From Clostridium hydrogenum (GTDB lineage: Bacteria; Bacillota; Clostridia; Clostridiales; Clostridiaceae), in NCBI RefSeq assembly GCF_021432385.1, contig NZ_JAEACT010000002.1:502016-566015 (forward strand): a DNA stretch of 64,000 nt. Direction: 5' to 3'. The notes beneath the pieces were generated by a model. The model saw only the letters and a program-made list of their open reading frames with translations, made no database searches and had not been told where the DNA came from. Of the stretch, positions 14,110 to 51,567 are shown piece by piece. Both the position numbers and the translations under genes were made by a program. The number at the start of each line of letters is the position of its first letter. Positions within the stretch are counted from its first letter, which is position 1.

Positions 14110-14124
14110 TTATAAGGAGAATTT

Positions 14125-14562
14125 ATGGATAACAAAGCACTAGATTTAATTGGATTAACTGGCTGCCTATATAGATGCGCTCAAACTTATTTTGATAGGG
14201 AATTAAAAAAATTTGACCTATCCATGGCAACCTACCCGTATTTACTTTCATTAAGTAAATGCGAAGGGATAAATCAAAACGAGATAAGTAGAATACTTTA
14301 CGTAGATAAGTCTATGTCTGCAAAATCTATTAAGAAGTTAATAAATCTTGGATATGTAAATAAAAAAGAAGATAAAGAAGATGCACGAGCATATAAACTT
14401 TACTTAACCGCTAAAGCAAAGAATATAATCCCTGAAATACTAGAAATCAGAAATAAGTGGATTGATATTTTGTCACAAGACAGTGATGATGAAAAAATAG
14501 AAAACTCTATAGATTTTTTATGGAAAGCCTTGGGGAACGGAAAAGAGGAGCTGGCACACTAA
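14125..14562 (+). CDS. MarR-family transcriptional regulator
   Basis: 145 aa, winged-HTH (MATYPYLLSLSKCEGINQNEISRILYVDKSMSAKSIKKLINLGYV). Likely co-transcribed with the MFS gene upstream. Confidence 0.7.
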   Translation: MDNKALDLIGLTGCLYRCAQTYFDRELKKFDLSMATYPYLLSLSKCEGINQNEISRILYVDKSMSAKSIKKLINLGYVNKKEDKEDARAYKLYLTAKAKNIIPEILEIRNKWIDILSQDSDDEKIENSIDFLWKALGNGKEELAH

Positions 14563-14711
14563 AAATTGTCAAACTATAATTTAAAAAATTATACACTAAT
14601 GCATATTGTTTAACATTTCATCCAATGCCAACTTTGTATATTAGTTGGCATTCGTTAAAACTATACTTTATAAACTTAGATTTGCAAAAAAATTATATAT
14701 ATTATTACTAT

Positions 14712-14972
14712 TTATAATTTTCTTTTGCTATAAATATCACCTGAAATTTCACTACCTATGCTATAGTCAAAAATATCATCTAAATCAATATTATATGATA
14801 TGTCATTATCAATAATTATACTATTTGCTATTTTGCTATTTAATTGTGTTGTCATTTTAATTATAACTTTTCCAGGGAATTTAAGTTTACTTGGCATTCT
14901 CTGTTCTTCCACTAAATTTATTATTCTACCCTCACCAACAAGTTGTCCATTTAAATACAATTTAACATTCAT
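14712..14972 (-). CDS. hypothetical protein
   Basis: 86-aa ORF. No recognisable motifs. Confidence 0.3.
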   Translation of the reverse strand: MNVKLYLNGQLVGEGRIINLVEEQRMPSKLKFPGKVIIKMTTQLNSKIANSIIIDNDISYNIDLDDIFDYSIGSEISGDIYSKRKL

Positions 14973-15266
14973 AATTATTAACCCTCCATACCGAATAATT
15001 TTTATATACTACCAAATTATTATATATGCTTAATTATAAAATACAAATATAGTTTTATTGATACTATTAACATTGAGTATATATAAATATTTAGTTAGTG
15101 CTTAAAATGAGTATATTATGTAAAGGTATAATTAATCTTTATCATATATTTCATCGTGAGAGTATGACTTTTTAGATTGATTATTTTTGACTAAAATATA
15201 CGGTTTTATAATATTACTGCAAGTAAGGTTTTATCAATGTTATACTAAATATAATGCATATTAACC

Positions 15267-15584
15267 CTACTTTTCATAATCTTTTGTATATCTACATTTT
15301 GGATAGTTTGAGCATCCCCAAAACGTTCCATATTGTCCACTTCTTAGTTTCATTTTAGAACCACACTGAGGGCAAACAGGTCTAGACTTTTCATAATCCA
15401 TATTTCTTTTATATTGTTCTTCAGTTATAACATTATAATCATCTGTTCCCTTATTAACTCGACAAATCGTAGTATTACATATTGGACATTGAATTTCATG
15501 AGCAATATCCTTAATAGGATATTTTACCTTTTTTAAATAGTACTTAGTTCCACACTTTGGACATTTACTCCATTCCTCATCCAT
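15267..15584 (-). CDS. zinc-ribbon protein with topoisomerase-type C4 zinc finger
   Basis: Three CxxC pairs (CPKCG...CPIC..., CPQCGSKMKLRSGQYGTFWGCSNYPKCRYT) matching the Topo I-type zf-C4 ribbon. Confidence 0.6.
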   Translation of the reverse strand: MDEEWSKCPKCGTKYYLKKVKYPIKDIAHEIQCPICNTTICRVNKGTDDYNVITEEQYKRNMDYEKSRPVCPQCGSKMKLRSGQYGTFWGCSNYPKCRYTKDYEK

Positions 15585-23191: not shown

Positions 23192-23224
23192 TTAATCATC
23201 CTTTTTAAAACATATTAAACCCAC

Positions 23225-35201: not shown

Positions 35202-35615
35202 TTAAGATTGGTAACTTTCAATTTTAAATATAACTTGACCATATTGGACCATATCTTTATCTTTAACTAATATTTCTAATATAGTTCCATTAACTGGAGA
35301 AAGTATTTCAATAGTAACCTTTAAAAAATTAATTGTGCATAGTAATTGCTTTATCTTAACCCTTTCACCACGTTTTACATATAAATTGTTAATTTCATGA
35401 TTAAAAATATTTACTATGCCAACATATTGCGACTTAACTTCTATAATCTCACTTCTATTGTGAGTAGTGCAACAGATTTCATTTCTAGCGGTATTGAAAA
35501 CTTCTTGTGTCGCCTTTATATATAAATTATTTGTTTTTATTTCAACATATGTCATATTGGAATTTATTATTTGTTGAATTAGGTTAACAAGTTGAGATTC
35601 CTCCATATTCTTCAC
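35202..35615 (-). CDS. hypothetical protein, last gene of the RiPP/ABC operon
   Basis: 137 aa. C-terminal region (VSPVNGTILEILVKDKDMVQYGQVIFKIE) weakly resembles a biotin/lipoyl-like hybrid barrel. Confidence 0.4.
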   Translation of the reverse strand: MKNMEESQLVNLIQQIINSNMTYVEIKTNNLYIKATQEVFNTARNEICCTTHNRSEIIEVKSQYVGIVNIFNHEINNLYVKRGERVKIKQLLCTINFLKVTIEILSPVNGTILEILVKDKDMVQYGQVIFKIESYQS

Positions 35616-35659: not shown

Positions 35660-36331
35660 TTACTTACTACTGCATATCCTACCATCTTTTATTTTAATAA
35701 CATCATCACATATTGAAGTAGATTCTAAGTTATGTGTAACCATTAATATAGTGGTCTTAAAATCATCACAAAGTTTTCTTAATAATTTTAAAATCATATC
35801 AGCATTTTGGGAATCTAAATTACCCGTTGGTTCATCGGCAAAAACAATCTTAGGGTTATTAACTAATGACCTTGCTATTGACACACGCTGTTGTTCTCCT
35901 CCTGATAAATATCCTGCTTTTTTATTTCTCTTATCATACAATCCTACATCTTTCATTAATTTATCAATAATATCTTTCTTTTTACCAAGTTCCCTATTCG
36001 CTATTATTATTGGTAATCTAATATTCTCTTCAATAGTCATCGTAGGTATAATATTATAAGATTGAAATACAAAACCTATATTATTACATCTAAACTCTGA
36101 CATTTTACTATCATTTAATTTCATTATATCAGTATTATCGATATATACTTCTCCTTTATCAGCAGTTAATAGCCCACTCAATGTATACAAAAGAGTACTT
36201 TTACCAGATCCCGAATTTCCTGTTATTGCAACAAATTTGCCATTTTCAACATTAAGTGATATATCCTGTAATACTGGTACATTTGTATTATTATTATCGT
36301 ACGACTTACAAACATTTACTGCTCTAATCAT
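35660..36331 (-). CDS. ABC transporter ATP-binding protein (MacB/FtsE-like)
   Basis: Walker A GNSGSGKST, signature LSGGEQQRV, Walker B VFADEPT, H-loop THN. 223 aa. Confidence 0.85.
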   Translation of the reverse strand: MIRAVNVCKSYDNNNTNVPVLQDISLNVENGKFVAITGNSGSGKSTLLYTLSGLLTADKGEVYIDNTDIMKLNDSKMSEFRCNNIGFVFQSYNIIPTMTIEENIRLPIIIANRELGKKKDIIDKLMKDVGLYDKRNKKAGYLSGGEQQRVSIARSLVNNPKIVFADEPTGNLDSQNADMILKLLRKLCDDFKTTILMVTHNLESTSICDDVIKIKDGRICSSK

Positions 36332-36341: not shown

Positions 36342-38858
36342 CTATTCATCCTTTATATTTTTAACAACATCGCATTTAACTGATTTTCTAACGGAAAAAA
36401 ACATGAACGTCAGTGATACACTAAGAACTAATATACCAATTATACAAGACTGTACTACTGAAAAACTACTTGGCACATTTACGCCACCTCCATTAGATGC
36501 TTTATTAAAAATCCCCACCAAATATTCAGTTGATATACTACTTCCACAAATGCCAACTACAATCACCACAAGAAATAATAACGCTATCTCTAAAAACGCT
36601 ATTCTAGTAGTGCTAATCTTGCTTAGACCAATAGACATTAGTAACGCTAATTGCTTTTTATTTTCACTTATTGTCATTACACATGTATTTACCAATAATG
36701 TCATTAAAGCAAGTTCTATGGTAAAGAAAAGAACTTCAATTGGTAGCATTCCTTCCATCACATTTTCCTGCCACATATATTTCATACCATTACGGTCATT
36801 ATAATCTACTTCCTTGCTTTTTTGCTTTCTTTCTTCTTTAATCTCTTCTTTGCTTTTTTGTGTAGTATCACCAAACAACGCTTGATCAATTTTATCTTCT
36901 GTGTCAAATCCATTTTTCTCATTTATATATTTAATTGGTATTCTACATGTTTCAGGCTTAAATTGATCCTTATCGCCAAAAGAAAATACAACCCTTCCTG
37001 AATAATCCATAGTATTAATTATATCAGCAATCCTAACATTTTTCTTTTTTTCTCCTACAATTACTTCCAACTCAGAATTTATTTTCTTGTGTAAATTATC
37101 AGCTAATTCCTGTGAAATTACAACATCGTTATTGTTATCTTTAATATACTGTAATCCATTTTCAAATAAATTTTGATTATACATTTCCTTTATGACCGAT
37201 TCACTAGTTACACAATAGTTAAATTGGTCTCCTAAATTACTTTTTGCTTGTCCTTCATATATGCTACCAATTGGTTCTATATTTCCAATCTTTTTAATGA
37301 TCTTTTGCACTTTACTTTCTTCGGAATCTGTATATTTATAATTAATCTCAATATCATACCTTAATTGTTTATCAACTTGATCCCTTGCCCAATTGTGGTA
37401 TGACTTAATTGTATTTGATAAGGAAAGCTGTATAAGAATTATTAATAAAAAAGAACATGCCAGCCCCTTGTTTTTACTAAAATTATTACTCATATTATGA
37501 GATACAAGAAGTGTAGTTCTATTTACCTTTAATTTCACTAATTTTCCGATGATCACTACTATATACGGAACCAAGCTAATAATTCCAACAATAAATAGTG
37601 CAAATAAAATTCCACATGATAACAATGTTAAGTTATTACTATTACAAACTAAATGGATAGTAATTGGGATAGCTATAGCTATGATACCCAGAGTAATTTT
37701 GATAGGATTATTTTTACTGCTATCTATTACTTCATCTTTAGCTTTAATAAGCTCATATGGGGTTTTCTTATTAAACCTTGTTGTTACAACTAAAACTGAT
37801 ACTATTGGCAGTACACCACCAACAACAATAGATATTAAAATGAATTCAAAACTCGGCACAAAACTCAAAATTGGTGTAGCTGTTAGAGTACAAACTCCAC
37901 ACCCTAATGCTATTCCTAAAGTAATTCCAAGAACTATACCAATACATGAATAAAACAAATTCTCAAGCACTATACAATATACCATCTCTCTATACTTAAG
38001 TCCTATAGTTCTTAAAACTGCCCAAAACTTAATACGTTCATTAATTATAACCGTATACGTATTTATAATTAAACTACACCCTAGAAATACAATAATAGCA
38101 ACTAAAAAAAGTAAACTATTTTGTAAAAATCCCATATCTTTTTCAACTTTAACATACTTTTGATAATCGTCAAAAACCTTTACCTCATCTCCATAGCTAT
38201 TATTTATCTTTTGTATTAACAATTTTGCATTGTTTGTATTGTGATTTAGATCTAGAAATATTCCACTTAAAGTATTACTACCATTTAAAATACCACTAGA
38301 AATAAATATTGTATCATTATCAGAGGTACTTGCATAATTTTCAGTTACTGCAGCAATCCTACATTCAGTTTTAATCCCATCAACCTCAACCTCTACATAA
38401 TCATTTAATTTAGCCCCCAGTTTTTTCATTAACTGCTTATTAACCACAATATCATTAGGTAATTTACTTATACTTCCTTGTACTATATTCATTTTTTCCA
38501 TGTAATTATAATCATTAAATTCTGTTTCATAAATATCTATACTTACTGGATTATCATTAAATGTTATATTACCTCCTTGTATAATATTAAAATTGACTTT
38601 CTTCTTTACATCACTATTGCTTATAATATTATCAATTTTTTTTCTATTAACCTCAGAATTAAATATCAGCCTTACATCTGAACTTCCACTTTTATTGACT
38701 TCTCTTATCTTCAGTCCGTTCATATTATTTGAGAACAATATTTCAGACATAATTATTATTGCCACTATTAGCATTACAGCAAAGGAAATAGGTATATTCC
38801 TCCTACGCTCTTTTGAATTGCTCACCCTATCTTTTATTAATATAATTTCTTTTTCCAT
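36342..38858 (-). CDS. ABC transporter permease, FtsX family (two FtsX modules)
   Basis: 838 aa, N-terminal TM, large extracytoplasmic domains, two 4-TM FtsX-like bundles. Adjacent to the ATPase. Confidence 0.75.
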   Translation of the reverse strand: MEKEIILIKDRVSNSKERRRNIPISFAVMLIVAIIIMSEILFSNNMNGLKIREVNKSGSSDVRLIFNSEVNRKKIDNIISNSDVKKKVNFNIIQGGNITFNDNPVSIDIYETEFNDYNYMEKMNIVQGSISKLPNDIVVNKQLMKKLGAKLNDYVEVEVDGIKTECRIAAVTENYASTSDNDTIFISSGILNGSNTLSGIFLDLNHNTNNAKLLIQKINNSYGDEVKVFDDYQKYVKVEKDMGFLQNSLLFLVAIIVFLGCSLIINTYTVIINERIKFWAVLRTIGLKYREMVYCIVLENLFYSCIGIVLGITLGIALGCGVCTLTATPILSFVPSFEFILISIVVGGVLPIVSVLVVTTRFNKKTPYELIKAKDEVIDSSKNNPIKITLGIIAIAIPITIHLVCNSNNLTLLSCGILFALFIVGIISLVPYIVVIIGKLVKLKVNRTTLLVSHNMSNNFSKNKGLACSFLLIILIQLSLSNTIKSYHNWARDQVDKQLRYDIEINYKYTDSEESKVQKIIKKIGNIEPIGSIYEGQAKSNLGDQFNYCVTSESVIKEMYNQNLFENGLQYIKDNNNDVVISQELADNLHKKINSELEVIVGEKKKNVRIADIINTMDYSGRVVFSFGDKDQFKPETCRIPIKYINEKNGFDTEDKIDQALFGDTTQKSKEEIKEERKQKSKEVDYNDRNGMKYMWQENVMEGMLPIEVLFFTIELALMTLLVNTCVMTISENKKQLALLMSIGLSKISTTRIAFLEIALLFLVVIVVGICGSSISTEYLVGIFNKASNGGGVNVPSSFSVVQSCIIGILVLSVSLTFMFFSVRKSVKCDVVKNIKDE

Positions 38859-38869: not shown

Positions 38870-40066
38870 TTATGCTTGTTGTTTATTTTTAACACCCTTT
38901 AATTTCTTAAGTATATCTACTATGCCTATACAAGGCAGCACAGTTACTATTGCAACAAAAATTTTTGTAAAAATTGAGTGTGCATCATACCAAGCTAAAA
39001 ATATCCATCTAGCCATAAATAAAAACATATAAGCTATAGCTATTAAACTAGCTATAAAATATATAAAATATACTCTTCTCTCCTTTTTGCTTATCTTATA
39101 AGCTTTATTCTTAAAGAACATATATTTAATTATATATGTTCTTACGTTGAATTTATTTAAAAGAATGGAAAATAAAAAATACCCATCAGTTAATGAAAAT
39201 GGACTTAAATTAGTTACAATAGCAATAAAATTACTTATAGCTACTATCTTACACATATCTCTAAAATTAGAGTCAATCCCTCCAAGCGATGCAATCCCTA
39301 AACTTACAAATGCAATAGCTAAATTTGTAACTAAACCAGCCATAACTATCTGTATTTTCTCAACATTTTTAAGTGTATTAATTCCCTTTACTTTAATATA
39401 AACAATAGGCATACATCCACTATATAAATTAAATGAAACTTTGTAAACGTCCTTTCCTAATGACAATGCAACAATAATATGTGATAATTCATGGGCTATT
39501 AATGAAAATCCTGACATAATTGTTAGATAAATAAATCCAGCTGAAGCAGAATTATTATACTTATACAATTGTTTTGTATTTCCCAAATCTAAAACATTGA
39601 AATTATTTATAGCAACTATAATACTAAAAAAAATCAATATACTATATAAAGCTATAAATAATTTCTTTATAGCTTTAGCTATTTCCTTTATTTTTTTGCT
39701 TTGAGGTTTCAGTATAACTTTAACTATCTCCTTTGACATAATATCAATTTCATTACTTATAATTCCACGCTGTTCATTTTCAATAAACCCATTATTCACT
39801 AATATCTTATAAAAGGCGCCAATATCTACTTTGCATTTTAATTCATCTTCAACTTTTGATTGCACATTGCTTAATGTACTACTTCCATCAAATAACTTTA
39901 TTATTCTTTGTACATATTTCAATTTATTTTTTGGTATCTTTATATATTTCTCCTTGTCCTCGCAAGCTAATACATAATACTCTTGTTTTCCAAATATGGA
40001 CTTATCCTCGATTATCTTATAGTCACTTACAAATTTAGGTTTAGCCTCTAAACTACTAGCCTCCAT
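38870..40066 (-). CDS. M50-family (site-2-protease-like) membrane zinc metalloprotease with N-terminal cytoplasmic domain
   Basis: HExxH within a TM helix (LIAHELSHIIVAL) and a downstream LDG-type motif (NLSPFSLTDGYFLF). Multiple TM helices. Its ATG overlaps the stop of the upstream rSAM gene (TAATG). Confidence 0.7.
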   Translation of the reverse strand: MEASSLEAKPKFVSDYKIIEDKSIFGKQEYYVLACEDKEKYIKIPKNKLKYVQRIIKLFDGSSTLSNVQSKVEDELKCKVDIGAFYKILVNNGFIENEQRGIISNEIDIMSKEIVKVILKPQSKKIKEIAKAIKKLFIALYSILIFFSIIVAINNFNVLDLGNTKQLYKYNNSASAGFIYLTIMSGFSLIAHELSHIIVALSLGKDVYKVSFNLYSGCMPIVYIKVKGINTLKNVEKIQIVMAGLVTNLAIAFVSLGIASLGGIDSNFRDMCKIVAISNFIAIVTNLSPFSLTDGYFLFSILLNKFNVRTYIIKYMFFKNKAYKISKKERRVYFIYFIASLIAIAYMFLFMARWIFLAWYDAHSIFTKIFVAIVTVLPCIGIVDILKKLKGVKNKQQA

Positions 40067-41472
40067 TAATTATCAACTCTCTCTAAACTTTTTTTATAAT
40101 ACTCGTAACTATTGAAATTTGCCTCTGAAAAATTAATTGATAACTTTTTTACATTCTTACTAAAGTTTTTATACTCCTCTTTATTTGTAACAAGTTTAAC
40201 AAGGTTTAATATTACCCTTTCAGTTATAACCCTTTGAACAGCACATCTTGATTCTATTACACTTTTTTTATTTCCATTAAACAAAAGTGAACTTCCTTCA
40301 CACCATAATGTACATACTCTATTGCAGAAACATTTTTTACATTTTTCTATCTCCGAACGATCTACCTTTTTAAATTCGTTCATTTTATCTTTTATATTTG
40401 ATTCATTATCAAAAATTGATGATATTTTGTCTTTTTTAGCTTCATAATACATTTGGCATGGATAAAACACTCCATCTATAGTATAAAATAATGACTCCTT
40501 ACCTGCTGTACAGTATTTAGCTTTTCTTTTTGTTACTATATTTATAATTATATTCAAAATTGTAATCGGAACTGTCATACATTTTTCTTCATCCTGTAAC
40601 ATTTCAAAACAATAATCAACCATATCATAATAAAATGTTCTTATATTTCTTTCAAATTCTGTAGGTAACTCATTCACATTATTGTAATCAGCTATATATG
40701 TAGATACATTCTGAGCCCCTAGTTCATAAAAATTATTAAAATATTCATTTATACTTCCGGCATTATATGTTCTTAAAAATGCCTCTCCCACCGTAGACTC
40801 TACCTCAAAAGTATATCCTCTATCTCTTAGCAATTTTAAGTTATTTAAAACTGTATCATAAGATCCTCTACCATCCTTAAATACTCTCATAGAATCATGA
40901 CATTCCTTATTTGCATCCATGCTAATAGTCACAAGAACACTATGTTCAATTATAAACTCAACAATTTCATTTGTAAGTAATGTACCATTTGTAATTACAC
41001 TAAATAGTGGCTGAGTAATGTTCTTTTGTCTACAAACATCTTCTGCATAACATATAAATTTTTCTATCTCACTAAATCCAATTAATGGTTCTCCGCCAAA
41101 AAAATTAATTACCTTTACACCATCAGGATAATTATTTAGAATAAATTCAAAAATCTTCTTATAATCATCAAATACCATTACTTTGTTGCCTTTTCTATCA
41201 TAAGTACCAGCATTTGCAAAACAGTACTTACAAGCCAAATTACAAGTTTCTGATGAACATATTATAAGATGTTTTAACCAAGTTCTATCAATAACATTAT
41301 TGGGAGTAACCATATCTTTTATTTTATCATTCTTAAAAACTTCTTTAATTTTTAAATTTATTTCATCTGGTTTACTACTATATAAAGCGATACTTGACGT
41401 TTCTGCATTATATAATATTTTTGTATTTTCATCCCTATCAATTACGTATACATTATCATACATCTTGTTCAT
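40066..41472 (-). CDS. radical SAM / SPASM-domain peptide-modifying enzyme
   Basis: CxxxCxxC (ETCNLACKYCFANAG), a GGEP motif (FFGGEPLIG), and a C-terminal Cys-rich SPASM-like region (KYCTAGKESLFYTIDGVFYPCQ...CKKCFCNRVCTLWCEGSS...RCAV). About 70 aa of N-terminal extension precede the rSAM core. Confidence 0.85.
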   Translation of the reverse strand: MNKMYDNVYVIDRDENTKILYNAETSSIALYSSKPDEINLKIKEVFKNDKIKDMVTPNNVIDRTWLKHLIICSSETCNLACKYCFANAGTYDRKGNKVMVFDDYKKIFEFILNNYPDGVKVINFFGGEPLIGFSEIEKFICYAEDVCRQKNITQPLFSVITNGTLLTNEIVEFIIEHSVLVTISMDANKECHDSMRVFKDGRGSYDTVLNNLKLLRDRGYTFEVESTVGEAFLRTYNAGSINEYFNNFYELGAQNVSTYIADYNNVNELPTEFERNIRTFYYDMVDYCFEMLQDEEKCMTVPITILNIIINIVTKRKAKYCTAGKESLFYTIDGVFYPCQMYYEAKKDKISSIFDNESNIKDKMNEFKKVDRSEIEKCKKCFCNRVCTLWCEGSSLLFNGNKKSVIESRCAVQRVITERVILNLVKLVTNKEEYKNFSKNVKKLSINFSEANFNSYEYYKKSLERVDN

Positions 41473-41574
41473 TAACTTTTCCCCCTATGATATTTATTTT
41501 TTATATCCTTTTTAATATCGAGAAGCACTGCCAACAAAATTAATTGCTAGCAAGTGCTAAAGGTTATATATTAA

Positions 41575-41709
41575 CTAGCAGCAGTGATAGCCACCAAAAG
41601 AAAATCCACTTACAACTTCTTCAATCTCACTAAGATCATCAAATGAGACCATTTCTAAATTTTCTTCATCTAATATTTTGTTTTCATTTTCTCTTTCATT
41701 CTTTATCAT
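41575..41709 (-). CDS. RiPP precursor peptide paralog 1 (44 aa)
   Basis: GGAGGG RBS. Translation: MIKNERENENKILDEENLEMVSFDDLSEIEEVVSGFSFGGYHCC*. Not in the ORF track. Confidence 0.7.
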   Translation of the reverse strand: MIKNERENENKILDEENLEMVSFDDLSEIEEVVSGFSFGGYHCC

Positions 41710-41849
41710 AATAAACCCTCCCCTCTTATCTGATTATTTGTTTATAATCTTATTACCTTGTAAAGAACCATATGTTTATTTATTCATATTATTCAAATAT
41801 ATGTCATACAAGGTTAAAATTTTTTTATTATTTTCCTAACTAATCTTAA

Positions 41850-41984
41850 TTAGCAACAGTGATAGCCACCAAAAGAAAATCCACTTACAACCTCTTCAAT
41901 CTCACTAAGATCATCAAATGTAACCATTTCTAAATTTTCTTCATTTAATATTTTGTTTTCATTTTTCTCTTCATTTTTTGTCAT
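41850..41984 (-). CDS. RiPP precursor peptide paralog 2 (44 aa)
   Basis: RBS GGAGCG. Translation: MTKNEEKNENKILNEENLEMVTFDDLSEIEEVVSGFSFGGYHCC*. Confidence 0.7.
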   Translation of the reverse strand: MTKNEEKNENKILNEENLEMVTFDDLSEIEEVVSGFSFGGYHCC

Positions 41985-42033
41985 AATAAAACGCTCCTTT
42001 AATCTTTTAATTTACCATATTAACTATTCTAAA

Positions 42034-42168
42034 TTAGCAACAATATTGAGTTCCTGCAGAAAATCCACTTACAACCTCTTCCATTTCACTGAGATCATCA
42101 AATGTAACCATTTCTAAATTTTCTTCACTTAATACCTTGTTTTCATTTTCTTTTTCATTTTTCATCAT
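42034..42168 (-). CDS. RiPP precursor peptide paralog 3 (44 aa)
   Basis: RBS GGGGTG. Translation: MMKNEKENENKVLSEENLEMVTFDDLSEMEEVVSGFSAGTQYCC*. Confidence 0.7.
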   Translation of the reverse strand: MMKNEKENENKVLSEENLEMVTFDDLSEMEEVVSGFSAGTQYCC

Positions 42169-42252
42169 AATAAAACACCCCTTTTAATTTTTTTAATATA
42201 TAATAAACTCAATCAAAAATTATTAAAACTTTGTTATATTATCTATTGTTAA

Positions 42253-42387
42253 CTAACAACAATATTGACTTCCTGCAGAAAATCCGCTTACAACTTCTTC
42301 CATTTCGCTAAGATCATCAAATGTAACCATTTCTAAATTTTCTTCACTTAATACCTTGTTTTCATTTTCTTCATTATTCATCATCAT
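42253..42387 (-). CDS. RiPP precursor peptide paralog 4 (44 aa)
   Basis: RBS GGGGGGG. Translation: MMMNNEENENKVLSEENLEMVTFDDLSEMEEVVSGFSAGSQYCC*. Confidence 0.7.
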   Translation of the reverse strand: MMMNNEENENKVLSEENLEMVTFDDLSEMEEVVSGFSAGSQYCC

Positions 42388-42466: not shown

Positions 42467-43579
42467 TTAATTTGTGACTATGGAATTAACTTTTTTCATA
42501 ATTTCAGCCTCTATTTTGGAAACTTCCTCTAGTCTAATAATCAAATCTTTTAGAAATGAAATTTTGCATCCAATGTAATTTTTATTATTATATAGTTTTC
42601 TAATTATATATCTCCATTTGATACTTAAATCCATCATTTTTTGTGCTTCAATAACTAACTCATCACTTTTAATATCCTTTCCAAACATTATTAATGCCTT
42701 TGCTATCTCTTCTCTTTCAAAAGTGCTTGTCCCTATTATTAATCCTTTTCTAAGGATTTTTGATTGTAATGTAAAAATTTTACTTGTTATATCCTCCTTA
42801 TTGGTATATCTTTTAATCATATCTATAAATTCATTAAGATATTCTATTATATACTTATATGCATTTTTACCACTTGTGAAATAAACATTATCACAATATT
42901 GTGTTAACTTGCTTTCCTTTGAATAGTTATCAGAAAATATAGCTATTTGCCTTAATATCAGTGTTCTTAATTTATCCTTATCCAATGACATTTTACTGTT
43001 TTTTTCAATTATAAATGCTCGTCCACTTGGCGACATTGGATATATTTTACTTTGCCTACTTCTTTTAAAATCCTCATAATCTACACTTATATATTCCTCA
43101 GTACTTGCAAGTGAACTCAATATTAGCTTTTCTTCTAAAACCCCTATTACTATTCCAGAAGATATATTGCTAATTCTTGCACTATTTTTTTTATATCTAT
43201 CTAACATCTCACTAGTATCGAAATAATAAACTACAGTTTGTTTATTAGAAACATATTCTTTAATTTTCTCAAGTGAATCTGTATTTTCCTTATCTAATTC
43301 AAAAACATTAAAACCTAATGATTTCAAAACATATATTTCAACCTCCTCATCACCAGGAAATATCTGGCACAAGTTTAGTTTGTTATAATTCTTTATTAAA
43401 AAGAAATTTATAATATTATTTAGACTTAATAACAATATATATTCAAAGCTTACTTCTTCATTTTTTAACCTTAGTAAATCGTAGATACATTTAATTCTAC
43501 AATGCCTATTTCTTTCATGTATGCCTTTATACTTATAAAGTAATGAATCTTCCACTATACTCCCTCCAATTTTTTGCAC
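42467..43579 (-). CDS. hypothetical protein (370 aa) between the KS/ACP genes and the precursor array, candidate transferase
   Basis: Intact ORF with RBS. No motif I can assign with confidence. Its position suggests a role linking the ACP-bound product and the peptide. Confidence 0.5.
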   Translation of the reverse strand: MQKIGGSIVEDSLLYKYKGIHERNRHCRIKCIYDLLRLKNEEVSFEYILLLSLNNIINFFLIKNYNKLNLCQIFPGDEEVEIYVLKSLGFNVFELDKENTDSLEKIKEYVSNKQTVVYYFDTSEMLDRYKKNSARISNISSGIVIGVLEEKLILSSLASTEEYISVDYEDFKRSRQSKIYPMSPSGRAFIIEKNSKMSLDKDKLRTLILRQIAIFSDNYSKESKLTQYCDNVYFTSGKNAYKYIIEYLNEFIDMIKRYTNKEDITSKIFTLQSKILRKGLIIGTSTFEREEIAKALIMFGKDIKSDELVIEAQKMMDLSIKWRYIIRKLYNNKNYIGCKISFLKDLIIRLEEVSKIEAEIMKKVNSIVTN

Positions 43580-43602: not shown

Positions 43603-45954
43603 CTATAATTTGCATTTTTTTAATATAACCGCACTATATGAGTGAGGATATGAGTAACTAGTAATCAAAATATTATTTATATCTGTTTTTAAACCTCTAC
43701 AATAGTAAATACTATTTTCATACAACTTATTTTCCCCACGCAATACCAATGCAGCATGTGCTATTTGCATTGAACTTGTTGCCGCTCGTCCTTCTCCTAA
43801 AATATCCTTAATTGAAATGATAGAAATATCGTTAAAAATATTCTTATAAATTTTTAGCTCCATCTCATCTATATTCTTATGCCCATTTGCAAGCCCCACA
43901 ATAGCCCCTATATCACAAGGATTTAATTTACACCGTTGTAATGCCATACTTATTGCGTACTTTAATCCTTCGCCATCATAATTAATTTTTGAAGAATCAT
44001 TATACATGCCATATCCCAAAACTTCAGCGTACTTCCTTCCATTTCTCTTATTGACGCTTTCTTCTGATTCTAAAACTATACTCCCAGCACCTTCAGTGAT
44101 TTCAAAACCATTATTTCTAAAGCTATCTGTTACTGAATTTTTATCATAGTTTGCCATATCATATGCTTTTTTTATGGTATCATTTATTTCATCTACCCCA
44201 GAAGCTATTATGCATTGGCTTCTATTTAGCTTTATTAAGTCATAGGAATAACAGAAACTATGAATTCCACTTTCTATACCATTTACTAATGTCGCTGTAT
44301 ATCCTTTTGCTTTTGTTATCATTGATAAATACCCTGCTGCGGTATTATATGATATACTTGGAAATAAAATTGCACTTGTGCCTTTAGTTCCCTTTTGTAT
44401 AATTTGCTTTATATAACTTTCAATTGTATTTATGGGTCCATCGCTTGTACCGACTATTATACCTACATCTTCTAATTGATTAAAATCAATTTTCGCATCA
44501 CTTATTGCATTTATCCCTGAAACAGTTAACATCTTTGAAAATCTATCCATTCTTCTTAAATACTTACTCTTAATACAATCAAATTTTTTTAAATTCTGCT
44601 CAAAATTTTCCATTTCATTTATATGCTTATCACCGTTTCTTTTTGTAAAAAAATCTATGTAGCTATCCTTACCTATTCCAAGGCAATTTACCATACCAAT
44701 TCCAGTTATAAATACTCTCGGTTGATTTAATTCCTCCGCTTTATATGAATTTACTTTCCTAGAAAATATAACAGACGAATTAACTCCACCAAAAGCTAAC
44801 GAATTAGACATTATATTATTTGTATTATACTTAATAAACTTATTAGGAATAAAATCCATATTATAATTTTGATTATTTTTATCAAAATTCATAGTTGGCG
44901 GTAATACATTATTCTCCATAGATTTTATTGATATTATCGCTTCTAATATGCCTGCTGCACCAAGGCAATGCCCTATCATCGATTTAGTTGAGCTTATCTT
45001 TATGGAATTTAATTTTTTTGCAAACAGTTTTTCATAACATCTTTTTTCAGTTGTGTCATTTAAATACGTTCCAGTTCCATGTGCATTTACATAATCTATA
45101 TCACTAGCATTTAATTTTGACATGTTTAAAGCAGACTCCATTGCTTTTAATTGAGTTTCTCCTGATGGTTCAGGTGATGTTACATGATATGCATCGCTTG
45201 TAGTTCCATATCCTAATACTTCACAATACATCTTTGCATTTCTTTTATTTGCATGCTCCAAAGATTCTACTATAATTATTCCTGCCCCTTCTCCTAATGT
45301 TAACCCATCACTTTTTGAAAATGGTGAACATTCATTACTAGATAATGCTTTTAAAGCATGGAATCCTGAAAACTGAGTATTACTAAGTGCATCAGCTCCA
45401 CCTACAATCATTACATCGACATTTCCTCTTTTAATCAAATCACATCCATATGCAATACTTATATTGGAAGATGCACACGCATCTGCAATACTTTCTACAG
45501 GACCACATATTTCAAAATATTCCGATATTTTTTCAGCAATATTTCTTATGCTGATTTTATCAATATCACTTTTAAAAATTTCCTTGCCCTTATCAATTTT
45601 TCTTAGGACGGTTTCACGTGAGTTCATTCCGCCCATGCAACTTCCTATAGCTATTCCTATTCTGCTTTTATCCAATTCACATATGTTTAACTGTGAATCC
45701 TCAATTGCCTCTATACATGCTTTTAAGGCCATCATTGTTGTATTATTTAATTCTTCTCTGATTTTAGAATGAAATTCGAAATTATCAATTTCAGCTCCTA
45801 CCATTGTATAACATCCATCAGTATTAACCTTGCTTAATTTTTTAAAACCAACTTTTCCATTTACTGTATTTAAAAAAGTATCATTTACATTTTCTCCATT
45901 ACAGCATGTACACCCCATACCAGTTACAACACATCTAATCATTTCCATCACCAC
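43603..45954 (-). CDS. tandem beta-ketoacyl synthase protein (KS + chain-length-factor-like second KS domain)
   Basis: Domain 1 carries the KS triad: active-site Cys in IADACASSNISIAYG, and His in VNAHGTGTYLND and SMIGHCLGAAG. Domain 2 (from about aa 410) is KS-like but lacks the active-site Cys (TSDGPINT), as in CLF/KS-beta. Confidence 0.8.
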   Translation of the reverse strand: MVMEMIRCVVTGMGCTCCNGENVNDTFLNTVNGKVGFKKLSKVNTDGCYTMVGAEIDNFEFHSKIREELNNTTMMALKACIEAIEDSQLNICELDKSRIGIAIGSCMGGMNSRETVLRKIDKGKEIFKSDIDKISIRNIAEKISEYFEICGPVESIADACASSNISIAYGCDLIKRGNVDVMIVGGADALSNTQFSGFHALKALSSNECSPFSKSDGLTLGEGAGIIIVESLEHANKRNAKMYCEVLGYGTTSDAYHVTSPEPSGETQLKAMESALNMSKLNASDIDYVNAHGTGTYLNDTTEKRCYEKLFAKKLNSIKISSTKSMIGHCLGAAGILEAIISIKSMENNVLPPTMNFDKNNQNYNMDFIPNKFIKYNTNNIMSNSLAFGGVNSSVIFSRKVNSYKAEELNQPRVFITGIGMVNCLGIGKDSYIDFFTKRNGDKHINEMENFEQNLKKFDCIKSKYLRRMDRFSKMLTVSGINAISDAKIDFNQLEDVGIIVGTSDGPINTIESYIKQIIQKGTKGTSAILFPSISYNTAAGYLSMITKAKGYTATLVNGIESGIHSFCYSYDLIKLNRSQCIIASGVDEINDTIKKAYDMANYDKNSVTDSFRNNGFEITEGAGSIVLESEESVNKRNGRKYAEVLGYGMYNDSSKINYDGEGLKYAISMALQRCKLNPCDIGAIVGLANGHKNIDEMELKIYKNIFNDISIISIKDILGEGRAATSSMQIAHAALVLRGENKLYENSIYYCRGLKTDINNILITSYSYPHSYSAVILKKCKL

Positions 45955-45959: not shown

Positions 45960-46220
45960 TTAATTGATTTTAGTAATAATTAAATTAGCCAAGTCTCGTA
46001 TACATTTAATAGATTTCTCATCATCACTTGTAATTGTAATTCCAAACATATCTTCAGCAGTTGATGTTATTTCAATTATGTCTAGCGAATCTAATTCTAA
46101 TCCTCCATCAAAAAATTCTTGATCATATGTTAATCTTTCGGCATCAATATCTAGTTTTAACTTTTCAATTATTTCTTTCTTTAGCTTTGCACAAATATCC
46201 TCTTGACTATATTTCATCAT
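45960..46220 (-). CDS. acyl carrier protein
   Basis: 86 aa, acidic. Phosphopantetheine attachment motif GGLELDSLDIIEI, where the Ser of DSL is the attachment site. Confidence 0.75.
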   Translation of the reverse strand: MMKYSQEDICAKLKKEIIEKLKLDIDAERLTYDQEFFDGGLELDSLDIIEITSTAEDMFGITITSDDEKSIKCIRDLANLIITKIN

Positions 46221-46594
46221 TTATCCCCACTTTCATTTTTATTATATTCCCACAATAATATTTAACTTTTGTTAAAATACTAATTTACGTTTAGAATCGT
46301 ACAATTAGCATATTTTTTGATTTTAACAACCAATATGTAATATATTAAAATTATTATTTTACAATTCCTTATTTGTATTATACTTCCAATTAACTTTATA
46401 TTCAATACTTTTTTGTATTATTTTGCCAAATATATTTTTCTAACTATCAAGTTTCTGTAAATATAAAGCAAAAACACCTTAATTCATACTTTTTAAGTAT
46501 AAATTAAGGTGTTTTTATTAAATTTAGGTATAACACAAAAAGTGTAAATACATTTTTAATTATATATTTTAAATTATTTGCTACAAATGTTGAG

Positions 46595-47286: not shown

Positions 47287-48717
47287 TTAATTTTCGTTTA
47301 AGAATCTTATAGCAATCCTTGTCCCTTTATTAACTTCACTTTCAACTTCAAGTTTAGCATTGTGAATCTTAGAAATTTGTGCACATATTGAAAGTCCAAG
47401 TCCTGAGCCATTATTACTTCTATCTCTTGATTTATCAACCATATAAAAGGGCTCAAAAATCTTATTTATATCTTCCTTTGGAATTCCAATTCCGTTATCT
47501 GCTATTTCAATAACAGGAGATTCCTTAACATATGCTCTTATATATATTTCACCATCATCTTGAGACGCCTTTATTGCATTATCCACAAGATTTGTTATTA
47601 AAATTATTATAAGCTCCCTATCCATGTTTATACATAAATCTTGTGCCTTAATTATTAGCTTAATATTTTTACTTTTTAATTTAGGTGTAATTAAAGCCTG
47701 TACCTCTCGAAGAAGCTCTTGTACTCTTTCCATTTTCATTATAGGCTTTTCTTCTCTTAATACAATCAAATCTCTAAGCTTTAAAGAAAGTTTTTGTAAC
47801 CTTTTTCCTTCTTTATATATGTACGTTAAACATTTTATATGTGTTTCTTCATCATATTTATCAGTTGTTCTTAAAAAATCAGCATATCCAATTATTGAAG
47901 TAAGCGGTGTTTTAAGCTCATGTGATAAATCATCTATAAATCTTTGCTTATCCTCTGAAATTCTCTCAAGCTCATTTATCTTATCTTCTATTACCTGTGC
48001 CATACAATTAAAATTTATTGATAAATTACTAATTTCATCATGTGATTTAATTTTGACCCTTTCAGAAAAATCCCCACTGGATATTTTTTTTGTAGATTTA
48101 ACAAGCTCATCTATAGGCCTAATTATAATTTTACTAAGCAATATCATAACTACAGCTAAAATCAAACATATTGCTATATTGGCCTTTATTAAAACATTAT
48201 ATAAGTACTTTCCATCTTCATATGCTTGCGAAATTTCCTTTACATATGTAATTTTATAAATATTTTTATTTAAATTAATTTTTTTATTTACAAACAAATA
48301 TGTATGTTTATTTATATCATGTATAAAGTAACTATAACTATTAAATGAAATATTCCATATACTTTTATTACTTATAATTTTCTCTTTAAAATTGGTGAAT
48401 ATAGTTTTGTTATTTTTATCACTTATGTACAAATATACATTTCTATCATTAAAGTAACTTGCATAAGCACATACCATAGAATCTATACTTTTCTTATCCA
48501 CCTTCAAATCATCACTAGGTGGATTTTTTTTATCTTCAAAAAACTTAATTGAAAGTTTTATAGAATCACAAAATTTATTTTCTTCAATCATACCTATATT
48601 TATTTCGTTTTGTAAATTACGTTCAAAGCTTCTATGTATTAAATACATGCTTGATGATACAAAAAATACTTCAAAAACTATTAAAGTACATAAAAATATC
48701 TTCTCCCAAAGTTTCAT
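47287..48717 (-). CDS. sensor histidine kinase
   Basis: Two TM segments and an extracytoplasmic domain. H-box LSHELKTPLTSI. HATPase_c N and G boxes (NLVDNAIKAS, DNGIGI, GSGLGLSI). Confidence 0.85.
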   Translation of the reverse strand: MKLWEKIFLCTLIVFEVFFVSSSMYLIHRSFERNLQNEINIGMIEENKFCDSIKLSIKFFEDKKNPPSDDLKVDKKSIDSMVCAYASYFNDRNVYLYISDKNNKTIFTNFKEKIISNKSIWNISFNSYSYFIHDINKHTYLFVNKKINLNKNIYKITYVKEISQAYEDGKYLYNVLIKANIAICLILAVVMILLSKIIIRPIDELVKSTKKISSGDFSERVKIKSHDEISNLSINFNCMAQVIEDKINELERISEDKQRFIDDLSHELKTPLTSIIGYADFLRTTDKYDEETHIKCLTYIYKEGKRLQKLSLKLRDLIVLREEKPIMKMERVQELLREVQALITPKLKSKNIKLIIKAQDLCINMDRELIIILITNLVDNAIKASQDDGEIYIRAYVKESPVIEIADNGIGIPKEDINKIFEPFYMVDKSRDRSNNGSGLGLSICAQISKIHNAKLEVESEVNKGTRIAIRFLNEN

Positions 48718-49374
48718 TTATTCCTCCAGCTTATATCCTAATCCAAACACTGTTTTTATATCATCCTTTAAATTCAATTTTTTTCTAATACGTTGGATAT
48801 GGCTATCTATGGTTCTTGTTTCACCTATATAGTCATACCCCCATATCTTTTCTAGCAATCTTTCTCTTGTAAGTACAATATTCTTATTTTGCACTAAAAT
48901 TAAAATAAGCTCAAACTCCTTAAGTGTAAGTTTTACAAAGTCTCCATTTTGTTTCACAGTTCTTTCTTGCAAATTAATTTCTATATACTTATACCTAAGT
49001 ATATTTTCCACTTTATTATAATGCCTAAGTACATTTTCAATTCTTGCAAGCAGTTCAACACCTTCAAAAGGCTTTGTCATGTAATCATCGGCACCCATTT
49101 TTAACCCATATACCTTATCTGCGATTGAATCCTTTGCTGTTAAAAAAATACTAGGAATGTTATACCCCTTAATTTTTTTAAACAAAGTAAATCCATCTAC
49201 CTTTGGCAGCATTACATCTATAATCGCCAAATCAAAGGTTTCTTCTTCGATCATATCCAAAGCCTCTTTGCCATTATATGCTTGTCTACTATCATAGTTT
49301 GACATACTTAAATTTAGCTTTATTAAATCAGAAATTGGGACATCATCTTCAACTATTAATATTTTCATTATCAA
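48718..49374 (-). CDS. OmpR/PhoB-family response regulator
   Basis: Receiver domain (KILIVEDD, LAIIDVMLP, LTAKD) plus a winged-helix domain (LTLKEFELILIL, GLGYKLEE). Confidence 0.9.
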   Translation of the reverse strand: MIMKILIVEDDVPISDLIKLNLSMSNYDSRQAYNGKEALDMIEEETFDLAIIDVMLPKVDGFTLFKKIKGYNIPSIFLTAKDSIADKVYGLKMGADDYMTKPFEGVELLARIENVLRHYNKVENILRYKYIEINLQERTVKQNGDFVKLTLKEFELILILVQNKNIVLTRERLLEKIWGYDYIGETRTIDSHIQRIRKKLNLKDDIKTVFGLGYKLEE

Positions 49375-50361: not shown

Positions 50362-51222
50362 TTATAGAATGTTATTTATTTTTTTAGCTAATTCGTCTGA
50401 TATTTCAACTAAAGGCAATCTAACTTCTGGCGATTTTATTAAACCAAGCTTACTTAAGCAGTACTTAATTGGAGCTGGATTAGGTTCTTCAAACAACAAT
50501 GGTATTATAGGCGCTACTTTCTTCCAAATTTCAAATGCACCTTCGTGGTCGTTTTGCTTAGCTTTATTAAATATTTCTACATACTTCTCTGCATTGAGAT
50601 GTGCTGAAGCCATTATTCCACCATCTCCACCAAGCATTAATGTGCTGTAGAAAAATGCATCTTCTCCTGTTAATATTGAAAAATCCTTTGGTCTATTAAG
50701 TAAAAGGTCTGTTGTTTGATTAAAATCTCCGCAAGCATCCTTTATACCAACTATATTTTTGAGTTCTGCAAGCTTTCTTACAGTATCATTTTCAATATTT
50801 CTGCCAGTTCTATAAGGTATGTTATAAAGGACTATATCCAAAGCTGTAGACTCAGATATCCTCTTAAAGTGTTCATATATACCCTTCTGGCTAGGTCTAT
50901 TGTAATATGGACATACCGATAATATTCCTTGAATTTTATATTTTTCAAACATTTTAATACTCTTTGCCATTTTTTCTGTATTGTTTCCCCCAAAGCCAAT
51001 ATACAATGGCACTTTATTTTCAGTATATTCTACTGTTTTTTCAAGTATACTTTCATATTCATACTCTGATAATGTTGGGGTTTCTCCTGTAGTTGCAAGC
51101 GGCATAAGTCCTGAAACACCCTTACTTGTATAGTTCTGTATCAATTTTTTATAGGAAGCAAAATCTACTTCCCCATTTTCAAAAGGAGTAATAATTGGTA
51201 ATAAAACGCCTTCAATTTTCAT
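50362..51222 (-). CDS. dapA: 4-hydroxy-tetrahydrodipicolinate synthase family protein (DapA/NAL superfamily)
   Basis: DapA-family motifs (LPIITPF, GLMPLATTGE, Schiff-base Lys context GIKDA). It is preceded by a lysine riboswitch, which supports dapA rather than another aldolase. Confidence 0.65.
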   Translation of the reverse strand: MKIEGVLLPIITPFENGEVDFASYKKLIQNYTSKGVSGLMPLATTGETPTLSEYEYESILEKTVEYTENKVPLYIGFGGNNTEKMAKSIKMFEKYKIQGILSVCPYYNRPSQKGIYEHFKRISESTALDIVLYNIPYRTGRNIENDTVRKLAELKNIVGIKDACGDFNQTTDLLLNRPKDFSILTGEDAFFYSTLMLGGDGGIMASAHLNAEKYVEIFNKAKQNDHEGAFEIWKKVAPIIPLLFEEPNPAPIKYCLSKLGLIKSPEVRLPLVEISDELAKKINNIL

Positions 51223-51259: not shown

Positions 51260-51500
51260 CACATGAAAAGTAACAGCAAAGGAACACCCTTGCTGTTACT
51301 ATTATATTCAATATTAACAATACGCGTGTACCTTGTAGCTCTCCACTATATAAATATTTCAAGTGACAGTCCTGCATATATTCTATACAAAACCAGAAGG
51401 CACCCTTGCCAGAATGCTTTCTTCGGCTGTAATTCCTTTTCTTGTCCATCACTGCCCGCTGGCTAAAGACAAGTACTTATAATTGCAGCACCTCTACCCT
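51260..51500 (-). ncRNA. lysine riboswitch (L-box) with terminator-type expression platform, in the dapA leader
   Basis: Read on the minus strand: AGAGGTGCTGC ... CCGAAGAAAGCATTCTGGCAAGGGTGCC ... GACTGTCAC ... TGGAGAGCTACAAGG. These match the conserved L-box blocks AGAGGTGC, GAAAG...GGG, CTGTCA and TGGAGxGCTA. They are followed by the hairpin AACAGCAAGGGTGTTCCTTTGCTGTT plus a T-rich tail (51272..51297). Local GC is high for this genome. Confidence 0.7.
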
Positions 51501-51567
51501 AGGTAAAATTCATTTAATTTTACAGTTAGTTTATCACATACCTGTATAAATTTCAAGCCATGCAAAA

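Follow-up and report, generated by a model that had tools for sequence, protein, structure and literature searches.

A Clostridium hydrogenum operon that combines G-x3-C-C precursor peptides, a radical SAM/SPASM maturase and a BtrH-fold protein with carrier-protein genes

Among RiPPs, the peptides that are ribosomally made and then modified after translation, ranthipeptides and sactipeptides derive from small precursors with an acidic leader and Cys residues in the core, encoded directly upstream of the radical S-adenosylmethionine (rSAM) enzyme that modifies them. Neither class is known to occur alongside an acyl carrier protein (ACP), a ketosynthase (KS) and an enzyme of the BtrH fold. The lipolanthines, goadvionins, lipoavitides and selidamides are RiPPs whose operons contain fatty-acid or polyketide genes; the acyl donor of the goadvionins is ACP-bound, acylation in lipolanthines, goadvionins and lipoavitides is N-terminal and follows leader removal, and the lipidated RiPP classes listed in PMC13647313 all use acyltransferases of the Gcn5-related N-acetyltransferase (GNAT) type. 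Carrier-protein-dependent amide formation is also carried out by papain-like transacylases, namely CtaG (closthioamide), CcbD/LmbD (lincosamides), BtrH (butirosin) and AsbE (petrobactin); CtaG and CcbD work by a ping-pong mechanism through a Cys thioester and have a Cys-His-Asp/Glu triad, which BtrH and AsbE are reported to keep (PMC12865890; PMC12945683). In the epipeptides (YydF/EpeX), the leader is removed by the M50 protease EpeP (PMC10885120). Likenesses to each of these systems were found in one operon of Clostridium hydrogenum, which lies in the 64,000-nucleotide stretch from position 502,016 to 566,015 of contig NZ_JAEACT010000002.1 (assembly GCF_021432385.1), hereafter the window, and which contains four genes for 44-amino-acid (aa) precursor peptides. 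Positions are those of the window unless another locus is named.

The operon is about 11 kb long (46220 to 35202) and has 13 genes, every one on the minus strand, with gaps of about 100 nt or less. Its order is an ACP, a fused ketosynthase and chain-length-factor protein (KS-CLF), a 370-aa protein of the CcbD/CtaG/BtrH fold, four precursors, an rSAM/SPASM enzyme, an HExxH protease, a MacB-type permease, an ATP-binding cassette (ABC) ATPase and a small adaptor. The best overall explanation, to which an even chance is given, is that this is one biosynthetic operon making an rSAM-modified peptide that would also be acylated. A sequence-only reading of the precursor region had left out the ACP, KS-CLF and 370-aa genes, and these upstream genes change the likely nature of the product. 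No paper on an rSAM-RiPP system that includes KS/ACP as well as an enzyme of the BtrH fold was found in the literature.

Precursor genes and their peptide family

The four precursor open reading frames (ORFs) lie on the minus strand at 42253..42387 (copy 4, transcribed first; MMMNNEENENKVLSEENLEMVTFDDLSEMEEVVSGFSAGSQYCC; RefSeq WP_268906138.1), 42034..42168 (copy 3; MMKNEKENENKVLSEENLEMVTFDDLSEMEEVVSGFSAGTQYCC), 41850..41984 (copy 2; MTKNEEKNENKILNEENLEMVTFDDLSEIEEVVSGFSFGGYHCC) and 41575..41709 (copy 1; MIKNERENENKILDEENLEMVSFDDLSEIEEVVSGFSFGGYHCC), each encoding 44 aa and each preceded, 6-9 nt upstream of the ATG, by a GGAG or GGGG Shine-Dalgarno sequence. Coordinates, translations and ribosome-binding sites agree exactly with those of the sequence-only reading, which had called the ORFs unannotated; RefSeq in fact lists them as the Clostridium hydrogenum hypothetical proteins WP_268906135.1 to WP_268906138.1, and the proteins neighbouring them are 100% identical to RefSeq entries of the same species. 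Nucleotide identity among the copies is 79-91% in the coding sequence, compared with 33-70% in the 30-40 nt flanks on either side, and Nei-Gojobori estimates for all six pairs gave proportions of synonymous differences (pS) of 0.23-0.55, proportions of nonsynonymous differences (pN) of 0.05-0.16 and ratios of nonsynonymous to synonymous divergence (dN/dS) of 0.15-0.26. Thus, the precursors are conserved at the protein level and not by chance: purifying selection holds the protein sequence, and the spacers have drifted. The alignment and dN/dS check called for earlier thereby bear out the coding nature of the ORFs. That these are chance frames within a non-coding repeat, for which their small size and nothing else would speak, is refuted by dN/dS of 0.15-0.26 at pS of up to 0.55, by four intact frames out of four, each with its ribosome-binding site, and by conserved homologues that unrelated genomes encode in the same place with respect to the rSAM gene.

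A repeat finder grouped the precursor units into a single direct-repeat family of four copies (193 nt, 73-83% identity) with irregular start-to-start spacings of 275, 184 and 219 nt, and Tandem Repeats Finder detected no regular head-to-tail array in the precursor region. The recent tandem amplification of gene plus spacer that had been proposed is only partly borne out; the spacers were not co-duplicated, and the synonymous divergence between copies indicates that the duplications are not very recent. The core, described earlier as hypervariable, comes in two types that share F-S-x-G-x-x-x-C-C. In a near-identical strain (locus L001, positions 1-85 and 226-360; Logan SRR22038622), a precursor copy ending ...SEMEEVVSGFSAGGYHCC is a mosaic of both window core types, which suggests recombination between paralogous precursor copies. 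Between the last precursor and the rSAM gene there is a moderately stable stem-loop (41524..41558, minus strand; minimum free energy -22.6 kcal/mol; z = -2.2; 3 of 200 shuffled sequences fold equally well, so that the evidence is weak), which, by stopping transcription in part or by stabilising the message, may increase the ratio of precursor to enzyme transcript.

A word-based search with the precursor returned the same locus only, in one sequencing run. The family was assembled from the contigs of the nearest rSAM and BtrH-like relatives and from one metagenome locus (L020), and comprises 17 sequences from 11 distinct loci, the window included; related small ORFs are present at each locus whose contig spans the region beside the enzyme genes. 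A homologous peptide is encoded directly upstream of a homologous rSAM at eight other loci (L002/L003, L004, L005/L006, L016, L017, L019, L020 and L102), and at L100 and L103 the family peptide adjoins a BtrH-like gene on a contig that ends before any rSAM gene. The leader end and core read ...ITFDDLKEMEEVVSGGSVGPIFCCNS in L002, ...EEVVSGGSAGPILCCNS in L100, ...VSFEDAQEMEDVINGASFGVVGCCVF in L005, ...VTFEELEEMEDVVNGSTSGIAICCSGQGVVSIPGL in L103, ...ISFNELEELEEIVFASSQGDSSCCNTTDFC in L016 (three copies), ...VSFKELEELEEVVFASSSAGNTSCCNGSK in L017, ...VSLNELDELEEMVCLGSGGTISCCNGRDGNTSVSR in L102 (two copies), and ...LSDFEDMEEIVTPGFFGVIICC and ...GLIGCCK in the two copies of L019; the precursors of L004 and L020 are MKKTFELVSFAGINDIGEVVAPSWLGFDTCCNGVSEK and MKKVTFTAGALRLVGAAGCFGLIGCCNGNSTVIA. 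The family leader is acidic, with the pattern F-x-[DE]-L-x-E-[LMI]-E-E-V-V, and G-x3-C-C is found in all family peptides save that of L101, with G39, C43 and C44 near-invariant in the alignment and the Cys pair nine residues past V-V (ten in one case).

Across the family, the Cys pair is preceded by F, L, G, I, S, M, T, H or Y and followed by 0-12 residues. An aromatic residue before a terminal Cys-Cys, as noted in the window copies, is therefore a local feature and not one of the family: in relatives, this place is taken by F, L, G, I, S, M or T, and as many as 12 residues come after the pair. Two chemistries suggested earlier were discarded accordingly, a Cys-to-Tyr/His cross-link because the aromatic residue is not conserved in the family, and a C-terminal-specific modification because the Cys pair is internal in most relatives. 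The first Gly of the Gly-Gly in copies 1 and 2 proves to be the invariant Gly of G-x3-C-C, and a double-glycine cleavage site at this place was rejected. A pearlin-like pathway, in which the precursor would be a scaffold whose Cys-Cys unit becomes a small sulfur-containing molecule, possibly joined to an ACP-borne chain and freed by the M50-like protease, would suit the exactly C-terminal position of the pair in the window peptides and one of the L019 copies, the finding that G-x3-C-C is the only conserved element of the core, and the precedent of the membrane M50 proteases TglG and TmoG, which free modified C-terminal residues from scaffold peptides (PMC10885120). Such a pathway is nevertheless improbable, given that 1-12 further residues follow the pair in most relatives, that the operon has no PEARL/LanB-like, DUF692 or other small-molecule-forming enzyme, and that peptide products typically come with an exporter of the MacB type and with several core variants that diverge from each other.

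The L101 peptide has the same leader (EEITFEDLEEIEQVI) and is accompanied by a homologue of the HExxH protease and by a BtrH-like gene; its core (TANMSIVSGNANSNFC) has no G-x3-C-C, and no rSAM gene was found within 21 kb. This single case ties the Cys-Cys motif to the rSAM enzyme, and the leader to the protease and the BtrH-like protein. L101 could be a distinct product class using the same leader system; its precursor, protease and BtrH-like genes lie together at 10001-12604 (GCA_050717515.1) with no ACP or KS, and are followed by two M23 peptidases and ABC/FtsX genes. At L002, a second cassette comes right after the first (12600-15506) and encodes a 48-aa peptide rich in Cys (MKSLNEKETLWSNLDVEEMEIREEYDSCFHVCINCIDCFCIKISCISF), another rSAM enzyme and a 396-aa protein.

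Searches of Pfam with eight family precursors and of NCBIfam with nine matched no family at E <= 10, so that the comparison with precursor hidden Markov models (HMMs) recommended earlier yielded no known class. A degenerate DNA pattern of the leader, applied to the genome contigs, gave nine matches in Bacteroidales, of which the two that were translated fall inside larger unrelated frames; all nine were taken as chance. The window genes nevertheless have the general characters of RiPP precursors, being small, placed beside a maturase gene, and composed of a conserved leader and a more variable core, in a position that is kept beside homologous maturases. They are almost certainly real RiPP precursors, as the sequence-only reading had proposed; an rSAM/SPASM maturase gene lies directly downstream, then that of an HExxH (M50-like) membrane protease, and homologues stand beside rSAM genes at the eight loci. 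The locus belongs to a small rSAM-RiPP family that is covered by no curated model and whose precursor signature is new.

Maturase, protease and exporter

The gene just downstream of the precursors (40066..41472, minus strand) encodes a radical SAM/SPASM peptide maturase of 468 aa with Radical_SAM, Fer4_12 and SPASM domains. The rSAM cysteines C77, C81 and C84 (CxxxCxxC) and a further seven (C321, C339, C378, C381, C387, C391 and C410), which make up a full SPASM domain, are invariant in 15 clade members. In its N-terminal extension, its CxxxCxxC motif and its seven-Cys SPASM domain the enzyme is like those of PapB/freyrasin, SCIFF/CteB thermocellin, CcpM and QhpD; its best NCBIfam matches, all under cutoff, are PapB, the SCIFF maturase, nif11-rSAM, CcpM and QhpD, and the nearest solved structure is that of CteB (5wgg, E 3e-28). 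PapB, CteB and QhpD, the rSAM relatives of established chemistry, form Cys-to-carbon thioethers. Because its closest characterised relatives make thioethers, thioethers from the two Cys residues are the default inference for the window enzyme. It probably acts on the Cys-Cys motif; that the product contains thioethers is suggested by analogy, at slightly less than even chances.

A scan of metagenomes with the alignment of the rSAM clade was swamped by generic SCIFF-type rSAM enzymes (24-30% identity), L020 being the only relevant match. A scan of a genome collection with the rSAM protein found nothing; this collection of species representatives apparently does not contain C. hydrogenum and close relatives of the system. 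A second and unrelated locus of RiPP-like appearance is situated at 200-3990 (minus strand) of the window. It comprises an rSAM/SPASM gene (200-1477; best NCBIfam matches Clo7bot, TIGR04463 and CefB, all under cutoff), a 54-aa ORF directly upstream of it (1565-1729; MAKEIKVTKEQVKVEEGKVYINSAELANAIQNEELDLSAEEEAGLNFCVVISTK), a 189-aa protein (2015-2584) and an M16-like peptidase of the YfmF/YfmH-like type (2602-3990).

The next gene of the operon (38870..40066, minus strand) encodes a putative 398-aa intramembrane HExxH zinc metalloprotease (RefSeq name 'zinc metalloprotease') with HELSH at residue 192 and about five hydrophobic segments. Homologues are present in nine further loci, of which L001 is the same locus in the near-identical strain, and these homologues match Pfam Peptidase_M50 weakly. 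With the epipeptide and daptide proteases it shares HExxH, several membrane segments and weak matches to daptide_HExxH and YydH/LiaK, but it is far under both family cutoffs (53.7 vs 300 and 37.6 vs 225, respectively). The succession of precursor, rSAM enzyme, membrane metalloprotease and ABC transporter is arranged as in yydFGHIJ of the epipeptides; unlike there, the window rSAM enzyme is not YydG-like, no epimerase family being among its matches, and the core motif differs. By analogy, the HExxH membrane protease is presumed to be the leader peptidase.

Export is represented by a MacB/FtsX-type ABC permease of 838 aa (36342..38858, minus strand) that has a MacB periplasmic core besides two FtsX domains, an ABC transporter ATPase of 223 aa (35660..36331, minus strand) of the LolD/bacteriocin-export/DarD type, and, as the last gene of the operon, a 137-aa biotin-lipoyl/HlyD-like barrel-sandwich protein (35202..35615, minus strand), perhaps the short adaptor of a MacB-type pump. 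No C39 domain was found in the exporter by domain search, which agrees with what the letters alone had indicated. This bears on another possibility, that the product is an unmodified class II (double-glycine-type) bacteriocin or pheromone, cut after V-V-S-G by a C39-like peptidase, while the rSAM enzyme acts elsewhere. The leader end L-S-E-I-E-E-V-V-S-G does fit loosely the double-glycine consensus (E at -8, hydrophobic residues at -7 and -4, G at -1; in part from PMC10885120). Such a product is very improbable, because the leader end is not conserved in the family (SG, NG, FA, TP, AP or CL, with an x-G end in only about 5 of 11 members), the exporter is not of the C39 peptidase-containing type, the precursor adjoins an rSAM gene at eight other loci, and the Cys pair co-varies with the presence of the rSAM gene.

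BtrH-like protein, carrier proteins and the proposed pathway

Upstream of the precursors, an ORF of 370 codons (42467..43579, minus strand; 362 aa in the RefSeq annotation) encodes a protein with the CcbD/CtaG/BtrH fold, a conserved Cys19, and Ser132 where the catalytic His would be expected. A word-based search with this protein returned only itself, and its family surfaced through an exhaustive HMMER scan that gave about 50 representative relatives, of which 44 were aligned; Pfam matches among these 44 are BtrH_N (27), DUF4872 (20) and Peptidase_C39_2 (6). An AlphaFold2 model made with the 44-sequence alignment is confident, with a predicted local distance difference test score (pLDDT) of 95.3, compared with 40 from the single sequence. 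In Foldseek searches with this model (E about 1e-9, template-modelling score 0.58-0.67), transacylase structures align over the full length (about 284-306 residues), whereas C39 domains match the N-terminal half only; when PDB sequences were searched by HMMER with a profile of the BtrH-like family, CcbD and CtaG were not reached, and the kinship is visible by fold alone. Judged from the model, the protein clearly belongs to the CtaG/BtrH/CcbD fold family; judged from the alignment, the canonical triad is incomplete. Cys19 is kept in 40 of the 44 members and begins a papain-like helix (19-30), as in CcbD, where the conserved Cys at the N terminus of the first long helix is likewise Cys19 (named in entry 9dks). 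Position 147, the candidate for the third triad residue, is Asn in 14 members, Asp in 9 and Ser in 8, and other conserved polar residues are R20, D113, R167, R269, R281, E283, R315, R319 and E349.

The operon begins with a gene for an 86-aa ACP (45960..46220, minus strand) that has a DSLD phosphopantetheine-attachment motif (Pfam PP-binding, 38.9 bits vs a cutoff of 20.8) and homologues in L102, L016 and L017. It is followed by the gene for a fused double ketosynthase of 783 aa (43603..45954, minus strand; ketoacyl-synt twice; TIGR03150 fabF, 496 bits). Its N-terminal half is a KS of the FabF-like type in which the Cys-His-His triad is intact (ADACASS / NAHGTGT / IGHCLG); the C-terminal half has, by self-alignment, lost all three triad residues (NGIESG / GLANGH / LGEGRA) and is chain-length-factor-like. 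The same KS-KS fusion is encoded in L102 (E 7.6e-191).

As with CtaG, CcbD, BtrH and AsbE, the gene for the BtrH-like protein, whose relatives match the Pfam families BtrH_N and DUF4872, adjoins a carrier protein, and ACP/KS or nonribosomal peptide synthetase (NRPS)-like carrier systems stand beside the BtrH-like gene in 6 of 9 loci (the window, L002, L100, L016, L017 and L102), in four different gene orders. These systems consist of the ACP and KS-CLF in the window; of an ACP, a fused KS-KS and a metallo-beta-lactamase (MBL)-fold protein in L102; of an ACP, two KS, an ApeI/FabA-like dehydratase (DH), a ketoreductase (KR), a 4HBT thioesterase and a phosphopantetheinyl transferase (PPTase) in L016 and L017; and of KS, DH and an FMN reductase, with an NRPS-like protein of adenylation, peptidyl-carrier-protein (PCP) and condensation domains (A-PCP-C) directly upstream, in L002 and L100, to which L002 adds a KR. 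No carrier-system genes were found in L004 and L019, the two rSAM loci that have both flanks visible and no BtrH-like gene. L002 and L100 also encode a second, remote BtrH-like paralogue among fatty-acid genes (L002 2069-3127; L100 65-1105; profile E 2e-18 and 5e-14, respectively). In L016 (7324-7971) and L017 (3295-3924), a nitroreductase/TM1586-type flavoprotein is encoded directly before the BtrH-like gene, and FMN_red proteins occur in L002 and L100 and not in the window; both may be tailoring oxidoreductases.

The following pathway can be proposed. The acidic leader (...F-D-D-L-S-E-[IM]-E-E-V-V) would dock the precursor on the enzymes, and the rSAM/SPASM enzyme would modify the invariant G-x3-C-C, most likely by linking both Cys residues through thioethers to residues close by, by analogy with PapB, CteB, QhpD and CcpM. 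The HExxH membrane protease would then cut off the leader near the V-V-(x-x) junction. On the dedicated ACP, KS-CLF would assemble a short chain, either acyl or polyketide, and the papain-fold enzyme would take this chain onto Cys19 and hand it to the peptide, the new N-terminal amine being the simplest acceptor, to give a lipidated or hybrid peptide; a thiol is an alternative acceptor that would suit an enzyme without the His. The MacB-type ABC system would export the product. Attachment of an ACP-borne acyl group by the BtrH-like enzyme is given somewhat less than an even chance. The operon shares with those of lipolanthines, goadvionins, lipoavitides and selidamides the presence of fatty-acid/polyketide genes, but differs from them in that domain searches detected no GNAT acetyltransferase domain in its proteins, the candidate coupling enzyme having the papain-like CcbD/CtaG/BtrH fold instead, in that the peptide-modifying enzyme is an rSAM enzyme and not a lanthionine/avionin system, and in that the hosts are anaerobic Firmicutes. 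The presumed acceptor, a ribosomal peptide, is also different from the sugar, polyamine or PCP-bound amine used by CtaG, CcbD, BtrH and AsbE. It is tentatively suggested that the operon represents a new hybrid class from anaerobic Firmicutes, in which an rSAM-modified G-x3-Cys-Cys peptide is joined to a carrier-borne polyketide or fatty-acyl group by a His-less papain-like CtaG/BtrH/CcbD-fold enzyme and not by a GNAT.

A number of observations count against an rSAM-modified and acylated product. Every chemical step is inferred, as distinct from the genes themselves, the purifying selection, the motif conservation, the neighbourhoods and the fold assignments, which are shown. On the peptide side, the rSAM enzyme, unlike members of the PapB, SCIFF and CcpM families, misses every curated cutoff widely (162 of 340 bits for PapB NF047865, 152 of 425 for SCIFF TIGR03974 and 142 of 500 for CcpM TIGR04068); its nearest homologues are only about 39% identical to it and SCIFF-type enzymes 24-30%. 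The core has two adjacent Cys residues in G-x3-C-C, where SCIFF peptides have several spaced Cys residues and PapA has C-x3-D/E repeats; with only two Cys and no match to the curated model at E = 10, the precursors are unlike those of SCIFF, which have six Cys in about 45 residues. In contrast to ranthipeptides and sactipeptides, no Asp, Glu, Thr or Asn that could serve as acceptor is conserved in the core, just Gly. Judged from these sequences, the large distance from the SCIFF-type and curated families, together with the vicinal-Cys substrate, makes a different rSAM reaction possible. On the acyl side, the 370-aa protein itself matched nothing in Pfam (to E <= 0.1) or NCBIfam, and its sequence similarity to CtaG and CcbD is undetectable by HMMER. 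At the position equivalent to their catalytic His, 35 of the 44 members have Ser, 6 have Thr and 2 have His, so that Ser or Thr stands in place of His in 41, and the alignment has no alternative His-rich column; position 132 was equated with the His site through secondary structure and a weak HMM alignment (domain E 0.5) with 3erv, a C39-like peptidase, not through superposed coordinates. AziU3, another of the top structural matches, is not known to be a transacylase. Some BtrH-like members, unlike CtaG, CcbD, BtrH and AsbE, have no carrier protein or KS nearby (L101, and L005 and L103 within the reach of their contigs), and the BtrH-like enzyme may serve another role or use housekeeping acyl-ACP. 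Finally, the window operon has no KR, DH, enoylreductase (ER), acyltransferase (AT), thioesterase (TE) or PPTase, and the length and reduction state of the acyl group are therefore not predictable.

The principal rival that these observations raise is a plain, non-lipidated rSAM peptide of the sactipeptide/ranthipeptide type, in which the 370-aa protein would be a leader-binding partner or a second leader peptidase, with the ACP and KS-CLF serving the synthesis of an unrelated lipid or providing something else than an acyl group on the peptide. It would account for the BtrH-like genes that accompany this leader where no ACP/KS is visible (L101; L005 and L103 within their contigs) and for a family without the catalytic His of known transacylases, and the conserved R20, R167, R269, R281, R315 and R319 could bind an acidic leader no less well than an acidic ACP. 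We consider it unlikely, although a serious contender, since carrier systems adjoin the BtrH-like gene in six of nine loci despite reshuffled gene order and are absent where the BtrH-like gene is absent, and since the full-length structural matches are transacylases, C39 domains covering the N-terminal half only. A peptidase role for the 370-aa protein has difficulties of its own: a papain fold without the His raises the same problem for a protease and for a transferase, the residue that precedes the presumed cleavage point varies (G, A, P or L), unlike that of double-glycine leaders, and the operon already has a dedicated HExxH protease.

Surroundings of the operon and significance

Upstream of the ACP gene, a candidate sigma-70-type promoter (TTGAAT-17-TATAAT) is found at 46377..46405 (minus strand); it is a consensus match only, and such matches are not enriched over shuffled sequences in DNA this rich in AT. 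The candidate lies just downstream of a terminator-like hairpin (46470-46516) that ends the preceding NUDIX gene. A response regulator of the OmpR type and a HAMP histidine kinase (47287-49374, minus strand) are encoded at a distance of two genes upstream of the operon, beyond the hairpin and the NUDIX gene. Elsewhere in the window, an ordinary lysine riboswitch (51328-51504, minus strand; Rfam RF00168, 108 bits) precedes dapA (50362-51222; TIGR00674, 277 bits), and two adjacent paralogous genes (20597-25810, minus strand) encode large MalT/LuxR-type regulators of 864 and 861 aa.

G-x3-C-C behind an acidic F-x-[DE]-L-x-E-[LMI]-E-E-V-V leader provides a compact, recognisable signature for genome mining, and the operon, with about 11 kb and 13 genes, is small enough for its chemistry to be open to direct heterologous expression. 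The replacement of His by Ser poses a mechanistic question for the recently defined family of CtaG-type ligases, a type of coupling enzyme that, as far as could be found in the literature, has not previously been linked to RiPPs. If the proposed pathway is right, it would be a third way of joining ribosomal peptides to lipids or polyketides, by a protease-fold, carrier-protein-dependent ligase, and if the hybrid class suggested above is real, it would contain the first thiotemplated, protease-like ligase to act on a RiPP. The rSAM chemistry may be new as well, as the vicinal Cys-Cys substrate could reveal reactions unlike those of sactipeptides and ranthipeptides, in which the Cys residues are spaced. 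The products could be membrane-active antibiotics or signals of clostridia.

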